From a phage, in the NCBI GenBank assembly GCA_018865545.1, contig GCA_018865545.1_3633.1: DNA of 64,000 nucleotides; one strand, 5' to 3'. Shown in pieces: positions 3,055-57,635 of the stretch; positions within the stretch are counted from its first letter, which is position 1, and each line of letters starts with the position of its first letter. The translations under genes and the position numbers were made by a program. The notes below the pieces were generated by a model. It saw only the letters and a program-made list of their open reading frames with translations. It ran no database searches and was not told the DNA's origin.

Positions 3055-5094
3055 ATGAAAGGGCTTTTTGTCGGAGATAACGAAGCTGACGGATTATTAG
3101 AAGAGGCAACTAAATATCACTGCACACTTTTTAAAGAATATGCTGTAAATAACTGGGTGTTGTTTCTCGATCCTGCTCACAAGGAATACCAGAGTGCAGT
3201 TAATTTTGCACGCAGCAAAGAAGGTGTTAATTTACGTATCCTTTCTTATGATGATTTTTACTCTTGGTTGCAGACCGAGCCAAGAGGGATAGCAATACAT
3301 AACCTGTTCGGCTATGATTTACGTCTGTGGAAAAAACTTTCTGGGATTGAATATGACATGTTCAAAGACCCAAAATGTATGGGGACGATAGGTAATAAAC
3401 AGGTAAATCTTTACGACACTCTTTCAATGAGTCGTGTTCTTTACCCAGATCGCCCATTGCCTAATGGCTGCCCAGATTCTGTATTGAACCCTGTAACAGG
3501 AAAACGTGACAGGGTTGGGCCACACGGCTTATTGGCATGGGGTTATCGTGTAGCAAACAAGAAAGTGCAGATTGATGATTGGCGTAATCAGCCATTGTGG
3601 GAATATGTAAACCGTGTGTGGGAAGACGTTATCATTAACGAACTTGTGTGGAAAGCTCTTATTGATGAGTCAAATGGTACGCGATGGCCTGATGACAAGC
3701 AGTTTATGTACACTGATAAACCTCACGGGATGCACCAGATTAATTGGAAAAATGCATTACGTAGGAGAATGCTCACAGACTATTTGATGATAGAGCAAGA
3801 AATACAAGGCGTATACTTTAATCGGGAGGAGGCAGAAAAATTAAGAGATCGCATAGATAAGATGATGCGAGAAATTGAAGAAGAGGTAGAACCACTTCTT
3901 CCAAAAAAAGAGATGACGAAATCTCAACAACCAAAATTCCCAGCTAACCCTTTTGACACAGCGGGTAATATATCTCATCATGGGTGGAATTGGTTGGAAT
4001 ATAAACTTGGCTATCCTGTTAACAGGGAAGCTCTGGAGTTTAAAGCTCCACCAAAAACAGCTTTTAAGAGTAATGGGGATGTAAGTGCAGCAGGGGAGAG
4101 ATATTGCATCCAGAATGGCATTGAAGATCCGGCTTTATACGGTGATTTCATTCGTTCCCAGCGAACCAAAGAGAACACACTCGAACCTTTACCGCCAGAT
4201 CTTCTAGAGAAGGCTAAAGAAGACCTTCGAAACAGAAAAATGCCAGATTTAATGGTTCCAATGAAAATCTCTAATCAAGATGATATTAAAAAATATTTGA
4301 TCAAAGATGCTGGTTGGAAACCTACACTGTGGCGTGTAAAAGATGTTACTAAGGATCAATTTAAAAAGACTCGTGAAGATTCTGAAATTGATGTACTAGT
4401 TAAGAAGTACATAGAAGAGTTGGCAGAGTCTGAGTATAAATCTCTTATTCTTGACTACCTTAATGATTCAGATGAGAAATTCAACATTTCAGAGCGTAAG
4501 TTTGACCATCGCCATGCATCTGAAAGGGGTTATTCAGAGATATTTAAGAAATTTCGGCGTAAAGCACGCCAGTTACCGACATCTCCTCAATTAAAAGATA
4601 ATTTTGGGCATCTGTGTCCAAATTTGGAGAAAATTGATGTGCATATGGCAAAACAGATTGTTAAGTGGCTATCACTTCGTAACAGGCGATCTGTTTTAGA
4701 CCCAATGGATGAGGATAAGACGGATACAGGGTTATTAAATCACCCTCGTTTAGACATTGACGGAAAACTTCCAGCACGTTTTTCTGGAATCACTAACACG
4801 GGCAGGTGCAAGCATACTGTTTGCGCAAACATGCCCAAGCCTGATCCGAAGGTTTTGTTGGGAAAAGAAATGCGGGGTCTTTGGACAGTCCCTGAAGGCT
4901 ACTACCTGATGGGTTGTGATGGATCTAACTTAGAAGGTATGATTGCAGCGGCAGGGGCTTTTGAGTTTGATGGTGGTGAGTATTTACGTATCATGATGGA
5001 AGAGGATGCCCATGAACGAAACGCAAGAGCATACACAATAGCAGCAGGAAAGGAGGTAACACGCTCTGGAGGAAAGGGGGTTACGTATGGTTAA
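3055..5094 (+). CDS. DNA polymerase, family A (T7 gp5-like), exon 1 (exonuclease + N-terminal polymerase part)
   Basis: Start chosen at ATG 3055 after aggagg RBS; N-terminus LFVGDNEADGLLEEATKYHC and HGLLAWGYRV resemble T7 gp5; ends with RSGGKGVTYG (R-x3-K-x3-YG, first half of motif B) directly before in-frame TAA. Confidence 0.8.
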   Translation: MKGLFVGDNEADGLLEEATKYHCTLFKEYAVNNWVLFLDPAHKEYQSAVNFARSKEGVNLRILSYDDFYSWLQTEPRGIAIHNLFGYDLRLWKKLSGIEYDMFKDPKCMGTIGNKQVNLYDTLSMSRVLYPDRPLPNGCPDSVLNPVTGKRDRVGPHGLLAWGYRVANKKVQIDDWRNQPLWEYVNRVWEDVIINELVWKALIDESNGTRWPDDKQFMYTDKPHGMHQINWKNALRRRMLTDYLMIEQEIQGVYFNREEAEKLRDRIDKMMREIEEEVEPLLPKKEMTKSQQPKFPANPFDTAGNISHHGWNWLEYKLGYPVNREALEFKAPPKTAFKSNGDVSAAGERYCIQNGIEDPALYGDFIRSQRTKENTLEPLPPDLLEKAKEDLRNRKMPDLMVPMKISNQDDIKKYLIKDAGWKPTLWRVKDVTKDQFKKTREDSEIDVLVKKYIEELAESEYKSLILDYLNDSDEKFNISERKFDHRHASERGYSEIFKKFRRKARQLPTSPQLKDNFGHLCPNLEKIDVHMAKQIVKWLSLRNRRSVLDPMDEDKTDTGLLNHPRLDIDGKLPARFSGITNTGRCKHTVCANMPKPDPKVLLGKEMRGLWTVPEGYYLMGCDGSNLEGMIAAAGAFEFDGGEYLRIMMEEDAHERNARAYTIAAGKEVTRSGGKGVTYG

Positions 5095-47477: not shown

Positions 47478-48263
47478 TTATATTCTTTTATACAAGGTAG
47501 GAGCTACAATTTTTGGAATAACAACAGGTTTGACTATTTCTTCTTTTTCAAGATAATTTATCCCAGAAGAAATGGCGTCGACCCAATCGTCTTTTCTTGT
47601 CGTAGTACTCCTTTCCCCATTGAACTTTTCAAGCTCTGTCATAAGGGCTTCATAAGTTTTAGGATCAAAACTATCACGAACTATTCTCACCATACCTGCT
47701 TGAGCAAGTTTTGCAAACGGTGTGAATCGTGTTAATTTTGATTTATTGCTTGGTGTAGGATCTTTTTCTACTGTAAACCCTTCCGCTATTAATTCACGGG
47801 AGCTTGTTAAAAATTCACTTATTCCTGCTTGTCCTGGGTCAACACTGAAAATTATAGTGACATCATCACCATCAAAATAAGCCTGTTTCTTAATGATAAC
47901 ATCACGTTCCCCAGCTTTTTTACAGAATCTTCCCTGCGTTTGAGTCGAATATCTACCATCATCAAAAAATTCAGGACAATAATCACCAGACAAGTAGTAA
48001 AAGCCATCATTGTCTTTACTTACCTTAACAGATGCTGTAAAGTCAGGATATCTGTTTCCAGATGTTCTTTCTGTACCTGCTTTATCATACGGGCGAACAG
48101 ATACAACACCGAGAGGTAAGCAGGGAACCTCTTTTAAATAAGATCTCTGGAAATAGTTTGCCCCTTCAGGTCTTGCGTTCCAGTTCCCATGCAACAACTG
48201 GGCTTTTTCTACCTCTGGAAGACCTTCAAGGAATGCTAGATAATCTGGGTTATTCTCCAGCAT
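47478..48263 (-). CDS. terL: Terminase large subunit, last exon (nuclease domain); true 5' edge a few codons upstream
   Basis: VTIIFSVDPGQAG and RKDDWVDAISSGINYL resemble RNase H-like nuclease motifs of large terminases; in-frame stop about 27 nt upstream of first Met marks the limit of the open frame. Confidence 0.65.
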   Translation of the reverse strand: MLENNPDYLAFLEGLPEVEKAQLLHGNWNARPEGANYFQRSYLKEVPCLPLGVVSVRPYDKAGTERTSGNRYPDFTASVKVSKDNDGFYYLSGDYCPEFFDDGRYSTQTQGRFCKKAGERDVIIKKQAYFDGDDVTIIFSVDPGQAGISEFLTSSRELIAEGFTVEKDPTPSNKSKLTRFTPFAKLAQAGMVRIVRDSFDPKTYEALMTELEKFNGERSTTTRKDDWVDAISSGINYLEKEEIVKPVVIPKIVAPTLYKRI

Positions 48264-49250
48264 GGGAGGATTATCGAATCCTTGTATTCAAGGTTGGACG
48301 CAACGCCAACCCCCGCACCACTACGTGCTGCTGCATGTCACCATGCAGAGTAGACTATATCACCACCCACACATAATGGGTGCTTCGCTTTTCGAACGCC
48401 ATTAGCTTGCGATCTACTCCCTTGCGGGATAGTCGTTGAACTACATTACCATTCATAGTTGTTTGAGATATAGATGTAAGTTTTTCTATCTTTTATTCTT
48501 CTAACAAGATTAAAACTAACACCCCATTTTTTAGATATCTTATTAATGCTTAGGATACCGTCTCTCAGATCTTCACATATCCCTATAACTTTGGATTCAC
48601 TAATTCTGTTGGAAGAAGGAACCATCCTGAAATTAAACTCTTTAGAAATGTCTGGGTAGACTCTCCCAGCTTTGATACTACTAACCACAGTCTGCCCAAT
48701 ACCAAACATCTCACTGATATCCTTTACTCTAGCACCCTGCTCAAGTAATCTGCATATCTCAAGGGCAGTGTTATCATCAAGAGGCCTGTAACTGTTTACA
48801 TAAGACTTCTTAAGCCCTATTTCATGTGCGTGATGTGTGTTTTCCTTTGCAGTTGTCCACTCAAGATTCCACGCTGCGTTATTAAGTTTGTTTCCATCTA
48901 AATGGTTCACTTGAGTTTTTGTATCAGGGCTATCATTCTCGACAAAAGCAAAAGCAATAACCCTATGGACAAGAACTTGAAACTTTTTACCATCCTCACA
49001 CAACGTTAACATTGCATAGCCAGTTTTCTTATGGACATTAGGATGTAAAAATTTGTGGGAATACAAACTATAAATTCTTCCATCATACGTCGCACAATAA
49101 TGGGAATACCCTAAAAATCCTAAATTTTTCATCTCAAACATTCTCCCTACTACAGTTTCGGAAAAGTAATTATAGCTGCTGATTGCCCTTATACAAAGGG
49201 TTTCCCAGCAATTAACGAAGTTATTCGACATGCATTACTGCATGAAGCCA
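48264..49250 (-). mobile_element. Group I intron-like insertion in terminase gene with HNH ORF (5' boundary unresolved)
   Basis: R GUUCAACGACUAUCCC (revcomp of 48426-48441) and S GAUAUAGUCUACUC (48335-48350) on minus strand; HNH ORF upstream of R; 3' segment repeated at 49606-49650. Confidence 0.5.
48446..49231 (-). CDS. HNH homing endonuclease (HNH_3/NUMOD-type), intron-encoded
   Basis: 261 aa; NLGFLGYSHYCATYDGRIYS N-terminus, LVHRVIAFAFVENDSPDTKTQVNHLDGNKLNNAAWNLEW core, HTH-like GIGQTVVSSIK. Confidence 0.75.
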   Translation of the reverse strand: MSNNFVNCWETLCIRAISSYNYFSETVVGRMFEMKNLGFLGYSHYCATYDGRIYSLYSHKFLHPNVHKKTGYAMLTLCEDGKKFQVLVHRVIAFAFVENDSPDTKTQVNHLDGNKLNNAAWNLEWTTAKENTHHAHEIGLKKSYVNSYRPLDDNTALEICRLLEQGARVKDISEMFGIGQTVVSSIKAGRVYPDISKEFNFRMVPSSNRISESKVIGICEDLRDGILSINKISKKWGVSFNLVRRIKDRKTYIYISNNYEW

Positions 49251-49572
49251 CTATTCTTTTAATGGTTGCGGAAATGAAGGAAAATGAAAGTGGTTTAGGC
49301 TTTCTTTTCTCATCCTTGCCATCCCAATACTTTTCAATTAATTCTTGCTCTGATTCACCCCAGATAAACTCCCCGTCACGTCTTATAAACCATCTAATCA
49401 CCCCGTCACGTTCAGGTATAGGATACCCCTCATCGTCTAAATACCAAGAAATCAACTCCTTAATCTTATGATCTGGATCAGGGTTACAAGAGATAACCAT
49501 CCTACTCGGGTATTTAGAGTTTGAACGTAGACGAGATATCAGATAATCTATCTGTGACCATGTGAATTGTGT
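49189..49572 (-). CDS. terL: Terminase large subunit, middle exon (ATPase domain C-terminal part); 3' limit is the ORF stop, real 5' splice site lies somewhere upstream of it
   Basis: Reading frame opens at 49572 after intron terminal G (49573): TQFTWSQIDYLISRLRSNSKYPSRMVISCNPDP, the post-Walker B R-x-R and (S/T)xNP region of large terminases. Confidence 0.5.
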   Translation of the reverse strand, partial: TQFTWSQIDYLISRLRSNSKYPSRMVISCNPDPDHKIKELISWYLDDEGYPIPERDGVIRWFIRRDGEFIWGESEQELIEKYWDGKDEKRKPKPLSFSFISATIKRIVASCSNACRITSLIAGKPFV

Positions 49573-49922
49573 CGTTTTTGTTCAGATAAGATCGCTACTC
49601 TTATCCCGCACCACTACGTGCTGCTGCATGTCACCATGCAGATCAGACTATATCTTGTGTGTTATTACACACCCCCCCTGTTTCGGCGGTTGATAATCAA
49701 CCGGAGGTTTCCCTCACCGCTTGGCCCTAACGCCCGTAAGCGATAGTCGTTGAACGTTCATCCCGTAGGGATGCTTCGCTGCGGATTGTCTAAACATTCA
49801 CACTGTTACTATACTCAACGTCATTACCGTTGACCATAAATATGTTACCATACCTACTTAGTGGTGATATGTATAAAGAGTTACCCGTCAATTAAAGGGG
49901 TTTATAGAGAGCACACTGTTCT
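49573..49922 (-). mobile_element. ORF-less group I intron in terminase gene
   Basis: Minus-strand P AAUUGACGGGUAAC (revcomp of 49880-49893), Q AAUCCGCAGCGAAG (49774-49787), R GUUCAACGACUAUCG (49741-49756), S AAGAUAUAGUCUGAUCUG (49636-49650); preceding exon ends in U, intron ends in G. Confidence 0.5.
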
Positions 49923-49955
49923 ACCCTCATCGAAACCTATAAAGGTATATTGCAA
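49923..49955 (-). CDS. terL: Terminase large subunit mini-exon (Walker B region), inferred
   Basis: Minus-strand frame LQYTFIGFDEG, hydrophobic run plus DE = Walker B-like, in frame with exon starting 49572 to give ...FIGFDEG-TQFTWSQIDYL...; bounded by intron-like sequence on both sides. Confidence 0.4.
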
Positions 49956-50194
49956 CTTATTGTCCCCTCAGTTCGCTACACTGAGGCGGTGTGCTAAAAC
50001 ACCCGCCACATGTTTCCATGTGGAACAGACTATATCTTCCATCCTTGGCGTGCCGTTTGGATCACCAATCGCTTGTGATTCTACTCTCCTACACTCATCG
50101 GAGATAGTCGTTACACCCAGAGTTTATATTTCCATATTCTGTGGCACGGTATTTTCCCATAGGGAGTTCCACCGTTATAGGCACGAAGGGCAAG
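49956..50194 (-). mobile_element. Group I intron-like element (3' core only recognisable) between terminase exon 1 and mini-exon; 5' boundary unresolved
   Basis: R (50095-50110) and S (50025-50040) elements; 85 bp at 49956-50040 nearly identical to the 3' end of the tape-measure intron (30772-30856); no P/Q recognised. Confidence 0.4.
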
Positions 50195-51277
50195 CTATTC
50201 ACCCTGATGATCTAATTTGTTATTCTCATACTCCATGTGTCTCCACAACACCTTTGCCCCAGATGGGAAAATTGCTTCCAGAGCTTTCTCCCTGAACTTC
50301 GGCTTCCATTCCTTATCGAGTTGCAAATAAATACTTTTCGCTGTATCAAAAAGTCCACCTGCACCTGTCAATTGAGGTGTTGTCCTACGAAACATTATAC
50401 ATGCTGTCTGCGGGTCATCGACATAAGCAAGCGGCATCAATTGTAGGAGATATGATTTTCCACTATTCCCAGTGACAACCACACAATCTTCCAGTCTGGT
50501 AACAAAGAAACCTGTTTGTGTTACAAAGCAGTATTTAAACCCATCCGTAGGTATAAACTCTTTAAGCTCAACTTTCTCTTTATCGTTTAATGCTCTTAAT
50601 GACCCGCCATTAACGTTTACATTAACAATGTACTCTGAGCCAATCTTCTTCAAAGAAGATTCACAATCGAAGCAGGAAACAACAAACTGGATAAAATCAG
50701 CAGTGGATTTGTTACTGGAAGAATACATACCACCTTGTGCTATAATGGCATCCATGATTACATCAAGTTGATGCCTTGAGCAGTTATAATAGTCCTCTGT
50801 TATCTCACCACACAACACTCGCTCTCTGATTGTTTCATCATCCAAATCCAAACCTGCACCAGAATAATTGAATGTTGTGATAAATTTTCCTTCCCAACCA
50901 CCGCTAGAATTTTTATGTGTCTCCGCAATTTCCGAAAATAATTGCGTTTTTGGTGGGGTATGGTAATCTTCTTTAAACAGGACAGTGTGTTCGTCAGATA
51001 GCTCTTGACAAATGCCATTACCTTCTATTCTTGTAAGTTTTTCGCAAGGGAGTTTAACAAACTCTAAAGGAGGGATAAATTTAGCCTCCCCAGTGGCTTT
51101 ATCATATTGCAGAATGTCCTGCCCTGACCATTCTGATATCTTAATCCAGCCAGATGGTGTCAACACCTCGTGGTCTTTAGACAAACACCCGGCGGCCCCG
51201 CCAATTATTAGAATTTGGGCTTTACTCTCCAAAATCATTTTTTGTTTAGGACTGGCAGGTCCAAATACTTTACTCAA
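50195..51277 (-). CDS. terL: Terminase large subunit, exon 1 (ATPase N-terminus) containing an intein in the Walker A motif
   Basis: 360 aa ORF; N-extein ...ILIIGGAAG, C-extein SGKSYLLQ... join to GGAAGSGKS Walker A; 3' end of ORF probably runs into intron. Confidence 0.7.
   Translation of the reverse strand: MSKVFGPASPKQKMILESKAQILIIGGAAGCLSKDHEVLTPSGWIKISEWSGQDILQYDKATGEAKFIPPLEFVKLPCEKLTRIEGNGICQELSDEHTVLFKEDYHTPPKTQLFSEIAETHKNSSGGWEGKFITTFNYSGAGLDLDDETIRERVLCGEITEDYYNCSRHQLDVIMDAIIAQGGMYSSSNKSTADFIQFVVSCFDCESSLKKIGSEYIVNVNVNGGSLRALNDKEKVELKEFIPTDGFKYCFVTQTGFFVTRLEDCVVVTGNSGKSYLLQLMPLAYVDDPQTACIMFRRTTPQLTGAGGLFDTAKSIYLQLDKEWKPKFREKALEAIFPSGAKVLWRHMEYENNKLDHQGE
50465..51187 (-). other. Intein (about 241 aa) inserted in terminase Walker A P-loop
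   Basis: Starts with Cys (CLSKDHEVLTPSGWIKI, block A-like), ends ...VVVTGN followed by Ser; host Walker A is complete only after excision. Confidence 0.6.
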
Positions 51278-51372
51278 AAGACCTCCATATTTTCTATTCC
51301 TACCATAGAAGGTAGTTTACCACGAATAACGATAAAAATAAAGCCCTTATCATTAAATAAGGGCATTGTCAA

Positions 51373-51666
51373 CTACTTATCTGAAGAAAATATTGTCTTC
51401 ACATACTGCTGTAACGTTCTTAATTTCATACGATCTTCAGCAGCCTTAATGTTGTTTTTCTTAATCACCTCGATAGCATCTGCATTACTAAGACCACCTG
51501 GCAATTTTTCAGGTTCTTTCGGTGGTATCATAGCCTCAGCGGGTGGTCTTGCTAAGATATCGCTTATTATGATCTCTTTTGCAACAGGAACAACTCTCTC
51601 AGGTGGTGAAGTGCACCCTGTTAACATAAACAATAGAAGAGGAACCATGATAACATACTTTTTCAT
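51373..51666 (-). CDS. o-spanin (outer-membrane lipoprotein, Rz1-like)
   Basis: 97 aa; signal peptide with lipobox LTGC, Pro-rich mature region; 4 nt overlap with upstream i-spanin-like gene. Confidence 0.55.
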   Translation of the reverse strand: MKKYVIMVPLLLFMLTGCTSPPERVVPVAKEIIISDILARPPAEAMIPPKEPEKLPGGLSNADAIEVIKKNNIKAAEDRMKLRTLQQYVKTIFSSDK

Positions 51667-52064
51667 TTAGACCCCAAACTGTCGTTATAGATATCAACAA
51701 ACTGGTTATCGAGGCAAACCTGTTTTCCTGCTTGTGTTTTGCTATAACTTTTAACCTTTTTATCAAGGTCTTCTTTCAGTTGGTTATTAATTTCTCTCTC
51801 TTTCACCAACATGGTTGACAACTCATCGATCTTATCCTGCTGTTGTTTTTTAAAAGCGTTATTACGATCCAGAACTTGCTGGTTAACCCTCTCCCATTTA
51901 AGATCCGTGTCGCTGACACCTGCGTTGTAGGACGATGTTAACTGGTCATTATACCAATGTTTTATCCCCAAGATACCACAGACGAGAACCACACAACACA
52001 AAACAACACCTATCTGTTTTATGTTCTTAGAAAAGAAAGTTAACAGCGTTTTAAACCATATCAT
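51663..52064 (-). CDS. i-spanin (Rz-like, N-terminal TM + periplasmic coiled coil)
   Basis: 133 aa; hydrophobic IGVVLCCVVLVCGILGI then charged coiled-coil region; paired with downstream lipoprotein. Confidence 0.5.
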   Translation of the reverse strand: MIWFKTLLTFFSKNIKQIGVVLCCVVLVCGILGIKHWYNDQLTSSYNAGVSDTDLKWERVNQQVLDRNNAFKKQQQDKIDELSTMLVKEREINNQLKEDLDKKVKSYSKTQAGKQVCLDNQFVDIYNDSLGSK

Positions 52065-53479
52065 GATATATCCCCATCACACTCAATAATGTTTTCAATT
52101 TTCAGTGTTGTTTTTCTGTTTTCAGAAATACACAAATCATTAAAATAACCTATATCGTATTGGATCTTTGACGTATCGCTTACAGAAACCTCTAACAGAA
52201 CTGCACCGGGCTTATACATTGTAAACCCATAATCATCTGTCTCCCCGTTCTCACACAGAATTTTGTACTCTCCTCTTGCCTCCGTTTCATCAACATAAAG
52301 TCTGAGAGTTGGAAAATTATTTGCTATATCTTCTTTGTGAAGCCCAATATGATGTGTATCTTTTGTTGGCATCATGAGATAGAAAACTTCAGCAGGACAA
52401 ACTCCATATAGTTTTGTAAAGTATTTCCTGCCTGTTGCTTTTCTTAATCTTTGGAAAATACTGAACATATTAACTTTAGATACATCATTAAACGGCAACG
52501 GTTGCACAGGGGTAACATTTTTGTCTATCTGCTGGCAACCAGATTCTAATCTGTCCAAGCACTCAACCAAAGAATCAAGGGAAAACTGTTTCGTATCATC
52601 AAAGATATCAGACAGTTTCATTCCGTACATTCCACTAAGATGTGACTTTGCCGATTCCCAACTTTCTATCTGAAGACTAGCAATGGTCATAGCTAGTTTC
52701 ATTGTCTCTTTTTTCGAAATTGTATATCCACGAGATTTGTATTTTTCAGATCTCAAAAGTGACATAATCGGGTATTCAGTCTTATGATTTACAACTAAGA
52801 CCCTTTGAGCAATATGTTTTAAGAAGTTGCTATCAAATTCCCACACACCATCCTTGAAGTTAAAAGCACCCATGTTGATTGTAAAATCAATTTTACTAAA
52901 GATGTCTTCTGTTGTTTTGAATACATCCACAGCAACACACTGTAATACAGGGTCTTTCCCAAAGTACAGCATCACACTCTTATCGGTTACACCAACTCTG
53001 GTAAGGTTTGGAAGATCTTCATCTTCAAAATGAAGATTTTTACATCTTGACAAAGGATCTGTGAAACCTAAATGAGAACCCTGCCCATTATCAAGGTTAT
53101 AAAAATACCTAAAAGTTCTTTTTTGATTTCCCCATCCGTTTGTCTGTGCGGCTAAATCATACTTTCCACCTAAGAGATTTTTATCCATCATGTACGCAAT
53201 GAATATCTCAAGGCTTTCCCAAGATGGGAAATACAAATCAAGATCGTTGACTTTACTATTAGAGAACAAAGAGGTTATTGCCCCGCCAGCTATCTTAACA
53301 TCCAGCTTCGACAATAAATCATAAACACCTTTTGGTATAAAAGAGCACAAAATGTCGTACTCTCTTTGAAAATCTTCTTTTTTGAAAACATGCAACATCT
53401 TAGCTATCCTTGAGTACAAAACAAGATGCGTAAAGACTAGCACATAAAGAAAAACCCCGCAAGAGGCGGGGTTAGGCAT
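52061..53479 (-). CDS. Predicted nucleotidyltransferase-fold protein (pol-beta superfamily-like), function unknown
   Basis: 472 aa; GGAITSLFSNSKVNDLDLYF fits the G[GS]-x(9-13)-DxD signature; likely real start at internal Met (MLHVF...); lies between spanins and tRNA cluster. Confidence 0.4.
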   Translation of the reverse strand: MPNPASCGVFLYVLVFTHLVLYSRIAKMLHVFKKEDFQREYDILCSFIPKGVYDLLSKLDVKIAGGAITSLFSNSKVNDLDLYFPSWESLEIFIAYMMDKNLLGGKYDLAAQTNGWGNQKRTFRYFYNLDNGQGSHLGFTDPLSRCKNLHFEDEDLPNLTRVGVTDKSVMLYFGKDPVLQCVAVDVFKTTEDIFSKIDFTINMGAFNFKDGVWEFDSNFLKHIAQRVLVVNHKTEYPIMSLLRSEKYKSRGYTISKKETMKLAMTIASLQIESWESAKSHLSGMYGMKLSDIFDDTKQFSLDSLVECLDRLESGCQQIDKNVTPVQPLPFNDVSKVNMFSIFQRLRKATGRKYFTKLYGVCPAEVFYLMMPTKDTHHIGLHKEDIANNFPTLRLYVDETEARGEYKILCENGETDDYGFTMYKPGAVLLEVSVSDTSKIQYDIGYFNDLCISENRKTTLKIENIIECDGDIS

Positions 53480-53609: not shown

Positions 53610-53682
53610 TTGCGAGTATTGGAATCGAACCAATCTGGACTGGCTTATGAGACCAGCGAAGTCACCAGACTTCAAACTCGCA
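53610..53682 (-). tRNA. tRNA-Met (anticodon CAU; could also be Ile-lysidine type)
   Basis: Manual fold: acceptor TGCGAGT/ACTCGCA, D stem GAAG/CTTC, anticodon stem CTGGT/GCCAG, loop CTCATAA, T arm ATTGG-TTCGATT-CCAAT. Confidence 0.75.
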
Positions 53683-54104: not shown

Positions 54105-54296
54105 TTATGGTTTTCCACGATACACAGAAATAGTTTTCCCATTGGCATTGATAACATAAGCTGTCTGATCCTCAGACAAAAACACTTTTTGGTCAATACC
54201 TGAAATAGCTATAGACTTTTGATGAGCACAATACCCAACAATTTTCCCACAAAAAATTTGTTCATCATTTGGAGATACGACTTTAACTGTTAACAT
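54105..54296 (-). CDS. Hypothetical small protein within tRNA cluster
   Basis: Start moved to internal ATG 54296 because the annotated N-terminus overlaps tRNA-Pro. Confidence 0.3.
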   Translation of the reverse strand: MLTVKVVSPNDEQIFCGKIVGYCAHQKSIAISGIDQKVFLSEDQTAYVINANGKTISVYRGKP

Positions 54297-54341
54297 GGTA
54301 TCCTCTGTACATTTCTGCTTTGATATGTATATGTTTGTTGG

Positions 54342-54416
54342 TCTGTCCGGTTGGATTTGAACCAACGACCTGATCATCCCAAGTGACCCGCGCTACCCAA
54401 GCTGCGCTACGGACAG
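54342..54416 (-). tRNA. tRNA-Pro (UGG)
   Basis: Acceptor CTGTCCG/CGGACAG, D arm GCGC-AGCTTGGGTA-GCGC, anticodon stem GGTCA/TGATC, loop CTTGGGA, T arm GTTGG-TTCAAAT-CCAAC; CCA encoded. Confidence 0.8.
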
Positions 54417-55365: not shown

Positions 55366-55444
55366 CACGAGAGTGAGGAATCGAACCTCTTAGTCACTGG
55401 TTTTGGAGGCCAGCCTTCACCCAGTGAAGTTACGCTACTCTCAT
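55366..55444 (-). ncRNA. tRNA-like sequence, unassigned
   Basis: Acceptor-like pairing ATGAGAG/CTCTCGT and T arm GAGG-TTCGATT-CCTC, but central region forms a long CACTGG/CCAGTG helix instead of canonical D and anticodon arms. Confidence 0.3.
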
Positions 55445-55450
55445 TAAAAA

Positions 55451-56008
55451 CTATTTTCGGAAAGGACTTATGAAAAATGCCAACATCACTCTCTCTCTTG
55501 AAAAAGCTCTGTCTTCAGGAACCACACTCTTCAGTTTCCAACCGACATAAATTCGCCAGTAAAATTGTTTTCCAAACAATCTAAAAGACGGGACAAACGC
55601 GAATACACCCCACGCATTGTCATTCCACATCAACAAATAGCCTTGTTGATTATCCTCCACATCAGAGCTTACATGGATGTTTCCTTTCCACTTTGTCACA
55701 GATGTGATTTCACGTCCAAGTGCGTGATAGGAGAAATTGTAGGCTTTATTTCTCCACAACCAAGCAACTCGTTGCAGATAAACACCAAAACTCCCTATCT
55801 TACGAACTTCTGCCCATCTCTCTATGTGTCCTTTATCACCATCTATAGGATTATCATATGTTTCCATCCACCTGAAAATATAAGGTAGATGCCCTGTCTT
55901 CTCATTATAGAACGGAACAACAAAAGGAGCCAGAATAACACAGAGAACCGACATAACTGGGTCAAGAGGTGCTAACAGAATCCACGATAAATATTTCAAG
56001 TATCTCAT
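55451..56008 (-). CDS. Hypothetical membrane protein
   Basis: 185 aa; N-terminal hydrophobic helices (LSWILLAPLDPVMSVLCVILAPFVVPF); Trp-rich. Confidence 0.45.
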   Translation of the reverse strand: MRYLKYLSWILLAPLDPVMSVLCVILAPFVVPFYNEKTGHLPYIFRWMETYDNPIDGDKGHIERWAEVRKIGSFGVYLQRVAWLWRNKAYNFSYHALGREITSVTKWKGNIHVSSDVEDNQQGYLLMWNDNAWGVFAFVPSFRLFGKQFYWRIYVGWKLKSVVPEDRAFSRERVMLAFFISPFRK

Positions 56009-56443: not shown

Positions 56444-56516
56444 TGGGAGTGGTAGGCTCTGCCCCTACGTCCTCTCGATTATCGGTCGAGCGATCTACTA
56501 ACTGATCTACACTCCC
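56444..56516 (-). tRNA. tRNA-Ile (GAU) with unusual T loop
   Basis: Acceptor GGGAGTG/CACTCCC, D arm GATC-AGTTAGTA-GATC, anticodon stem CTCGA/TCGAG, loop CCGATAA, T stem GTAGG/CCTAC but loop GGCAGAG lacks TTC; CCA encoded. Confidence 0.6.
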
Positions 56517-57538: not shown

Positions 57539-57635
57539 GGCTGGGTGATGGAATCGAACCACCTATGTATTCAACGGCTAGCCCGTCTATTTTCAGGATT
57601 ATAAATCCTCGCCCTTGCCAAAGGGCTTACCCAGC
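57539..57635 (-). ncRNA. tRNA-like sequence with oversized variable region, anticodon uncertain (possibly UAU)
   Basis: Acceptor GCTGGGT/ACCCAGC, perfect D arm GCCC-TTTGGCAA-GGGC, T arm GGTGG-TTCGATT-CCATC, but about 30 nt between anticodon arm and T arm. Confidence 0.35.

Follow-up and report, generated by a model that had tools for sequence, protein, structure and literature searches.

Over 15% of sequenced prokaryotic genomes are reported to carry Gabija, which acts at phage DNA ends lacking RecBCD activity. Gad2, a phage protein that counters it, was defined by Yirmiya et al., who found that knockout of the gene renders phage SPbetaL7 sensitive to Gabija and that a Brevibacillus prophage homologue abolishes Gabija defence. 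In the same work, SPbetaL7 Gad2 was toxic to cells, and AlphaFold predicted it to be a nucleotidyltransferase. A review of February 2026 still lists the mechanism of Gad2 as unknown. In this study, we describe a Gad2-like gene on contig GCA_018865545.1_3633.1, a stretch of phage DNA of 64,000 nt (hereafter, the window). Escherichia phages Av-05 and vB_EcoM_TH18, both rV5-like myoviruses of the Vequintavirinae, share 91-94% identity with the window, and GenBank records label the product of the gene a hypothetical protein. The original prediction for this gene, made from the sequence alone, proposed a nucleotidyltransferase that might act on RNA 3' ends (tRNA repair or tailing), in view of the adjacent tRNA genes, or serve in nucleotide signalling or anti-defence. 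Its nucleotidyltransferase fold is supported and its anti-defence option favoured, and its argument from tRNA adjacency did not hold up.

Judged by sequence comparison, the gene is a divergent member of the known Gad2 family (PF26128). BLASTP against Gad2 of Bacillus phage SPbetaL6 gave 38% identity over 167 aa (E 1e-31), and a second, colinear high-scoring segment pair of 42% over 50 aa spanned motif A (E 1e-9). A tblastn search of deposited phage genomes matched 141 of 50,697 records, from hosts of many genera; the gene matched in SPbetaL6 (E 3e-24) is annotated Gad2. Two members of the family alignment, P0049 and P0051, share 53-59% identity with Gad2. Member P0001, which is 96% identical to the window protein and has the same neighbours, carries PF26128 "Gad2" at full strength, and precomputed PF26128 matches were present on all 66 close homologues (E ≤ 1e-5). 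A Pfam scan of the window protein itself returned nothing, because PF26128 is newer than the Pfam copy scanned. NCBIfam and PADLOC scans were also empty, which is uninformative either way since these libraries are not built to name anti-defence genes, and PHROGs placed the protein in families of "unknown function" only. At E ≤ 1e-3, the family comprises 5,784 representative clusters. Homology to an experimentally validated Gad2 thus favours the anti-defence option. No report on the Gabija sensitivity of Vequintavirinae was found among the papers reachable.

The predicted structure agrees with this assignment. An AlphaFold2 model derived from an alignment of 43 sequences was confident (predicted local distance difference test score, pLDDT, 84.7; predicted template modelling score 0.84), except for the linker around residues 290-307. 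Foldseek against the PDB gave 45 top matches with E values from 5e-7 to 4e-3; 44 were class II CCA-, CC- or A-adding enzymes or Escherichia coli poly(A) polymerase I (PAP I), and the exception was FAM46A. The model therefore supports a pol-beta-type nucleotidyltransferase fold, as had been predicted from the motif, and more narrowly the head-and-neck arrangement seen in CCA-adding enzymes of class II and in PAPs. At the sequence level, the only recurrent Pfam match was PF01743 (PolyA_pol head), found below threshold in 11 of the 43 members; the best match in the family (E 0.0054, 17.5 bits) did not reach the gathering score of 23, and the window protein gave no match to it in the Pfam scan. 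phmmer against the PDB found only QatC (E 0.25), and a profile hmmsearch only calsequestrin (E 0.6), both noise. The family profile was also aligned by hhalign with the single E. coli Cca and PcnB sequences; the probability was ≤ 1%, and these alignments were used for motif register only. In that register, GGAITSLF..NDLD lies opposite GGAVRD..KDRD, so that G38, G39, D52, and D54 correspond to Cca G7, G8, D21, and D23; DFTINMGAF lies opposite RRDLTINALA of Cca and RRDFTINSLYY of PcnB; and PIMSLLRSEKY lies opposite DPLRVLRVARF. The fold searches corroborate this register.

The class of the fold bears on the signalling role mentioned above. A synthase of the cGAS/CD-NTase type, producing a nucleotide signal or decoy that disturbs a signalling defence, would share the pol-beta nucleotidyltransferase superfamily fold, and phage nucleotidyltransferases that produce competing nucleotides are reported in the literature. 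The neck and motifs are those of the class II CCA/PAP type, however, and no nucleotide messenger is known for Gabija; we regard such a synthase as extremely unlikely.

The conservation of the active site shows that the motif is not incidental. The bare pattern G[GS]x9-13Dx[DE] occurs nine times in the stop-free stretches of all six frames of the window (37,172 aa), and a match to it is weak evidence by itself. Its hydrophobic-flanked form occurs once in these stretches, in the Gad2-like gene. The motif stands above chance because the active-site residues are invariant across the family: G38, G39, D52, D54, Y56, D171, T207, K219, and Y220 are present in 210/210 family sequences, true Gad2 included. 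R216 is kept in 209 of the 210, and the position of S213 is S or T in all of them. Several of these residues lie in the neck, which carries a motif D-like block (N204..T207..P210..S213..R216..K219-Y220..G224-Y225) and GMYG (residues 256-259). The roughly 400 residues that the original prediction had left unrecognised could be divided into this helical neck, a head insertion peculiar to the lineage, and an ADP-ribosyltransferase (ART)-like domain at the C-terminus. The insertion is helical in the model, with lower pLDDT values (62-88).

We propose, with a probability of about 0.6, that the gene encodes a Gad2-family counter-defence enzyme that neutralises Gabija (GajA/GajB) and acts catalytically through an intact two-metal nucleotidyltransferase centre. 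Residues 1-290 would form the class II head and neck, with D52 and D54 in the predicted two-metal centre and D171 nearby. During infection, the enzyme would use a nucleoside triphosphate or deoxynucleoside triphosphate and move the corresponding monophosphate onto an acceptor hydroxyl. By analogy with the structural relatives, the acceptor would most probably be the 3'-OH at the end of a nucleic acid, or a comparable group; transfer to a 3'-OH is judged the most likely chemistry because the core is of class II. The transferred nucleotide would then remove or mask something that Gabija requires for its action, and the ART-like domain (residues 306-445) would supply specificity. Active-site mutations reportedly abolish Gad2 function. 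GajA is described as a nucleotide-sensing nuclease in the title of a published study. As Gabija is currently described, nucleotidyl transfer would have plausible points at which to interfere with it. Fold, active-site conservation, and family membership are shown; that the rV5-type branch targets Gabija, that catalysis is needed, and which acceptor is used are what we infer.

Several points weigh against this proposal. The protein shares only about 38-42% identity with validated Gad2, and this is confined to the head and neck. The rV5-type proteins have a 75-aa head insertion, and their C-terminal part aligns with that of true Gad2 by hhalign at a probability of only 9-11%. The acceptor is read from the modelled fold alone, and translational coupling to the spanin genes (see below) suggests late expression, which would be unexpected for a counter-defence gene. 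Some of these points would suit a template-independent PAP-type enzyme that tails RNA or DNA 3' ends in a role other than blocking Gabija, such as host RNA destabilisation, shut-off, or the countering of another nucleic-acid-targeting defence; the Gad2 chemistry would be kept and the target changed. The separate head insertion and distinct C-terminal conservation of the rV5-type branch, and the coupling to late-looking lysis genes, are consistent with such a role, and the toxicity of SPbetaL7 Gad2 fits action on a general cellular substrate. However, family membership is strong, the sole members tested counter Gabija, the whole catalytic signature is the same as in true Gad2, and another target is indicated by no data. 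A tailing enzyme with another target is accordingly a doubtful alternative to neutralisation of Gabija, and one that we rate as fairly unlikely.

The C-terminal domain was predicted to have an ART fold by structure comparison of the model. Weaker structural matches were to PARPs, pertussis toxin, RES toxins, and DarT, and the tRNA 2'-phosphotransferase Tpt1 is among the proteins that it resembles. SCOP (d.166.1) places the BC2332-like, CC0527-like, and Tpt1/KptA proteins together in the ADP-ribosylation superfamily. No C-terminal residue is invariant in the alignment of the whole Gad2 family, and no H-Y-E, R-S-E, or Tpt1 R-H-R-R signature could be assigned in the domain; the candidates H349/350, Y368, and E403 show no more than 50-83% conservation among rV5-type members. 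The residues invariant in the rV5-type subfamily are F312, L318, R319, R324, V333, A374, L401, and G442, and R319 and R324 are not invariant in the whole family. The Gad2-type short subfamily conserves another C-terminal pattern, YK.V…S.y…Y..G…g.Y. When C-terminal sub-alignments of the rV5-type and Gad2-type subfamilies were compared by hhalign, the match was weak, covering 22 columns at a probability of 10.7%; with richer profiles, 109 colinear columns were aligned (E 0.0035), a match that is also weak (probability 9%).

We read the domain as a probable substrate- or target-recognition module, standing where class II enzymes have the body and tail that bind tRNA. It could instead be the real effector, ADP-ribosylating GajA/GajB or DNA or RNA ends with NAD+, with the nucleotidyltransferase as an auxiliary part. 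The invariance of R319 and R324 in the subfamily and the conservation of Y368 and E403 would agree with an effector role. We nevertheless hold it to be most improbable: residues invariant across the family and assignable signatures are lacking in the domain, as described, Pfam ART families matched neither the window protein nor family members, and the nucleotidyltransferase site, in contrast, is perfectly conserved. A 2026 survey of Erwinia phages (PMC13480210) reported that gad2 co-occurs perfectly (rho = 1) with NARP2, an NAD+ reconstitution pathway; this may touch on the ART-like, potentially NAD-related fold, and could equally be due to shared phage ancestry.

The features of the locus are listed in Table 1. 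The 472-aa minus-strand open reading frame 52061..53479, which contains AGGAITSLFSNSKVNDLDLYF, exists as the original prediction had it, and its start was revised. Translation probably begins at ATG 53398, giving a protein of 445 aa, from which the residue numbers used here are counted. This start was chosen because a Shine-Dalgarno sequence lies close to it, because a terminator-like hairpin follows the first ATG, and because the N-termini of homologues in the family alignment coincide with the residue encoded there. The hairpin (AACCCCGC-ctctt-GCGGGGTT, then a T-run; 53473-53453) falls between ATG 53479 and ATG 53398. The Gad2-like gene, Rz, and Rz1 are linked by ATGA start/stop overlaps, as read from their coordinates, and look like a single three-gene unit. 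Downstream of the Gad2-like gene, the order is Rz, Rz1, a terminator-like hairpin, and the large terminase gene. The GC content of the Gad2-like gene is 35.8%, against 40.2% for the window. A scan for sigma-70 promoters was not above background (13 sites vs 9.1 expected).

Table 1. Features of the Gad2-like gene, its predicted protein domains, and its immediate neighbours in the window.
Feature	Position	Strand	Details
Gad2-family nucleotidyltransferase gene, probable extent	52061..53398	-	445 aa + stop; open reading frame with corrected start, BLASTP, PF26128 on the 96%-identical P0001
Predicted nucleotidyltransferase head domain, class II CCA-adding/PAP-like	52799..53398	-	residues 1-200
Motif A, AGGAITSLFSNSKVNDLDLYF	53228..53290	-	residues 37-57; carboxylates D52 and D54 predicted catalytic
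Head insertion, specific to the rV5-type subfamily	52994..53221	-	approximately residues 60-135; from alignment columns 120-245, missing from Gad2-type short homologues
Motif B-like DFTINMGAF	52862..52888	-	residues 171-179; D171 is the counterpart of the D in class II RRD, both arginines absent
Predicted helical neck domain	52529..52798	-	residues 201-290
Low-confidence linker	52484..52528	-	residues 291-305; pLDDT < 50 over 290-307
Predicted C-terminal alpha/beta domain, ART-like fold	52064..52483	-	residues 306-445; no canonical catalytic triad evident
Shine-Dalgarno AGGA	53407..53410	-	8 nt upstream of ATG 53398; direct sequence reading
Terminator-like hairpin	53453..53473	-	8-bp stem with 6 G-C pairs, T-run; between tRNA array and gene, inside the longer open reading frame
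Rz spanin gene	51663..52064	-	PHROG spanin match
Rz1 spanin gene	51373..51666	-	PHROG spanin match
Terminator-like hairpin closing the three-gene unit	51343..51364	-	after Rz1, before the large terminase gene

The gene thus stands, as originally described, between lysis genes and a tRNA cluster, with the spanin genes directly downstream and the tRNA array upstream. The array consists of 15 tRNAs found by ARAGORN and four further tRNA-like elements from Rfam, the closest of which (53612-53681) is some 210 nt away from the start codon. Such proximity, together with the CCA-adding-enzyme fold of the head and neck and the likeness of the C-terminal domain to Tpt1, among other proteins, could be taken to indicate an enzyme that repairs or tails the 3' (CCA) ends of the phage's own tRNAs. 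The distribution of the gene argues otherwise. Sixty viral-contig loci were compared, 10 belonging to the rV5-type subfamily and 50 to the remainder of the family; a tRNA array lay immediately upstream in 10/10 rV5-type loci, and a tRNA gene lay within 6 kb in only one of the other 50. FV3, a classical Vequintavirus, has no Gad2-like gene but retains tRNA array, Rz, Rz1, and TerL in this order. The gene is therefore regarded as accessory, a status that also agrees with its scattered occurrence among phages and its lower GC content, and in rV5-like phages the place separating the tRNA array from Rz seems to be a slot for variable accessory genes. Since the adjacency is confined to one lineage and persists in FV3 without the gene, it is inherited gene order round a variable slot and not evidence of function. 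Taken together, the FV3 locus and the single case among 50 loci rule out tRNA association as a family trait.

The residues that would be expected of a tRNA-tailing enzyme also differ. EDxxR and the two arginines of RRD, which relate to the selection of C and A, are absent, and so are the helical tRNA-binding body and tail. A need for de novo CCA addition was likewise ruled out, as CCA is encoded by almost all tRNA genes of the array; the host also possesses its own Cca. No literature linking Gad2 to tRNA was found among the papers reachable. Repair or tailing of phage tRNAs, which the original prediction had drawn from the adjacency, is on these grounds very unlikely.

A wider version of the end-directed chemistry would nevertheless give the tRNA array a meaning. 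Gad2-type enzymes, especially those of the rV5-type branch, may be nucleic-acid end modifiers that mask or repair ends or tRNAs attacked by OLD-family Toprim nucleases, among them GajA, P2 Old, and PARIS AriB; P2 Old cleaves the anticodon stems of tRNAs. Such enzymes would pair a CCA-adding-like nucleotidyltransferase with an ART-fold module of the Tpt1/BC2332 type, and their counter-defence would be aimed at the substrate and not at the defence protein. If so, the fact that rV5-like phages conserve the gene at the end of their tRNA array would reflect function and not accident. We consider this version unlikely, and keep Gad2-type neutralisation of Gabija as the preferred reading.

Several observations were made on the tRNA regions. 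The sole tRNA-near case among the 50 short-subfamily loci is a tRNA-Ser about 340 nt downstream of the Gad2-like gene (locus L023, 4926-5014). In phage FV3 (L084), the slot between the tRNA array and Rz is filled by an unrelated hypothetical open reading frame of 89 aa (4530-4799). In the window, all on the minus strand, a clear tRNA with encoded CCA at 56444-56516 (53.4 bits) was found by Rfam only and missed by ARAGORN. A 97-nt tRNA-like element without encoded CCA was found at 57539-57635 by Rfam only (33.1 bits), and the elements at 53612-53681 and 55369-55440, also without encoded CCA, matched only the Rfam tRNA-Sec model, below threshold; these three could be degenerate or unusual tRNAs. 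Two protein-coding frames of unknown function lie within the array: 55451-56008, encoding a DUF7338 protein (E 1.7e-64), and 54105-54377, a small phrog_3909 frame whose longer form overlaps tRNA-Pro.

Beyond the spanin genes lies the large terminase gene (47481-51277, minus strand), which, set against FV3 TerL, is split up into four colinear pieces: aa 1-30 at 51277-51188, aa 21-145 at 50488-50159, aa 143-248 at 49572-49261, and aa 249-514 at 48278-47481. The Walker A P-loop is interrupted by an in-frame insertion of about 233 aa (GGAAG|CLSKDHEVL...VVVTGN|SGKS), which has no Pfam match and, from its sequence, looks like an intein. Two of the gaps hold group I intron matches, of which 49624-49950 scores 66.3 bits, above the Rfam gathering score; weaker matches lie at 50006-50256, 48331-48522, and 49064-49271. 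An open reading frame with HNH_3 and HTH domains of the homing-endonuclease type (48446-49231, minus strand) lies inside the second intervening sequence.

A Gad2 homologue from an E. coli phage provides a tractable Gram-negative system for the study of Gad2 mechanism. The "hypothetical protein" of Av-05-like, PVP-SE1-like, GAP31-like, and Mydo-like phages can be renamed a Gad2-family nucleotidyltransferase, and in phage therapy the presence or absence of the gene may predict performance on Gabija-positive strains. The Gad2 family has already been named and modelled; the domain dissection is useful for the question of mechanism and does not describe a new kind of system. With a class II core that has no tRNA-templating residues and is joined to an ART-like domain, the biochemical hypotheses can be narrowed to transfer of a nucleotide to a nucleic-acid end or some related acceptor.

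The window protein can be set beside four known groups. Class II nucleotidyltransferases and PAP I (3h37, 1miv, 3aql) share with it motif A (GGxxxx...DxD, aligned in register with Cca D21/D23), the D of motif B, and the LRxxR/K-F/Y helix of motif D. They differ in having RRD, where the window protein has K-I before D171 and the family consensus is x-F, and in the templating EDxxR, where Y/F-P-I-x-S lies opposite E-D-P-x-R and S213 lies opposite the templating Arg. With RRD and EDxxR lost, nucleotide selection is implied to differ from that of CCA enzymes. In place of the helical tRNA-holding body and tail, the model has the ART-like alpha/beta domain. TENT5/FAM46 poly(A) polymerases (6jyj, 8exf) are eukaryotic, have no detectable sequence similarity to the window protein, and are without an ART-like domain. 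The ART superfamily (BC2332-like proteins, Tpt1/KptA, toxin ARTs, and PARPs) has no sequence-level match to the C-terminal domain. The closest group is Gad2, which is likewise phage-encoded, placed in an accessory slot, and a predicted nucleotidyltransferase, is colinear with the window protein over the head and neck, and shares the invariant signature GG..T..DxDxY, DFT.NM, N..T..P..S..R..KY, and GMYG. Gad2 of SPbetaL6/SPbetaL7 has 400 aa, compared with 445 aa here; the 75-aa head insertion is found only in the latter, and the conserved C-terminal residues differ. Known Gad2 proteins come from Bacillus phages SPbetaL6/SPbetaL7 and prophage homologues, whereas the gene described here belongs to an rV5-like myovirus of a Gram-negative enterobacterium, with a tRNA array and spanin genes as its neighbours in place of the SPbeta anti-Gabija locus.

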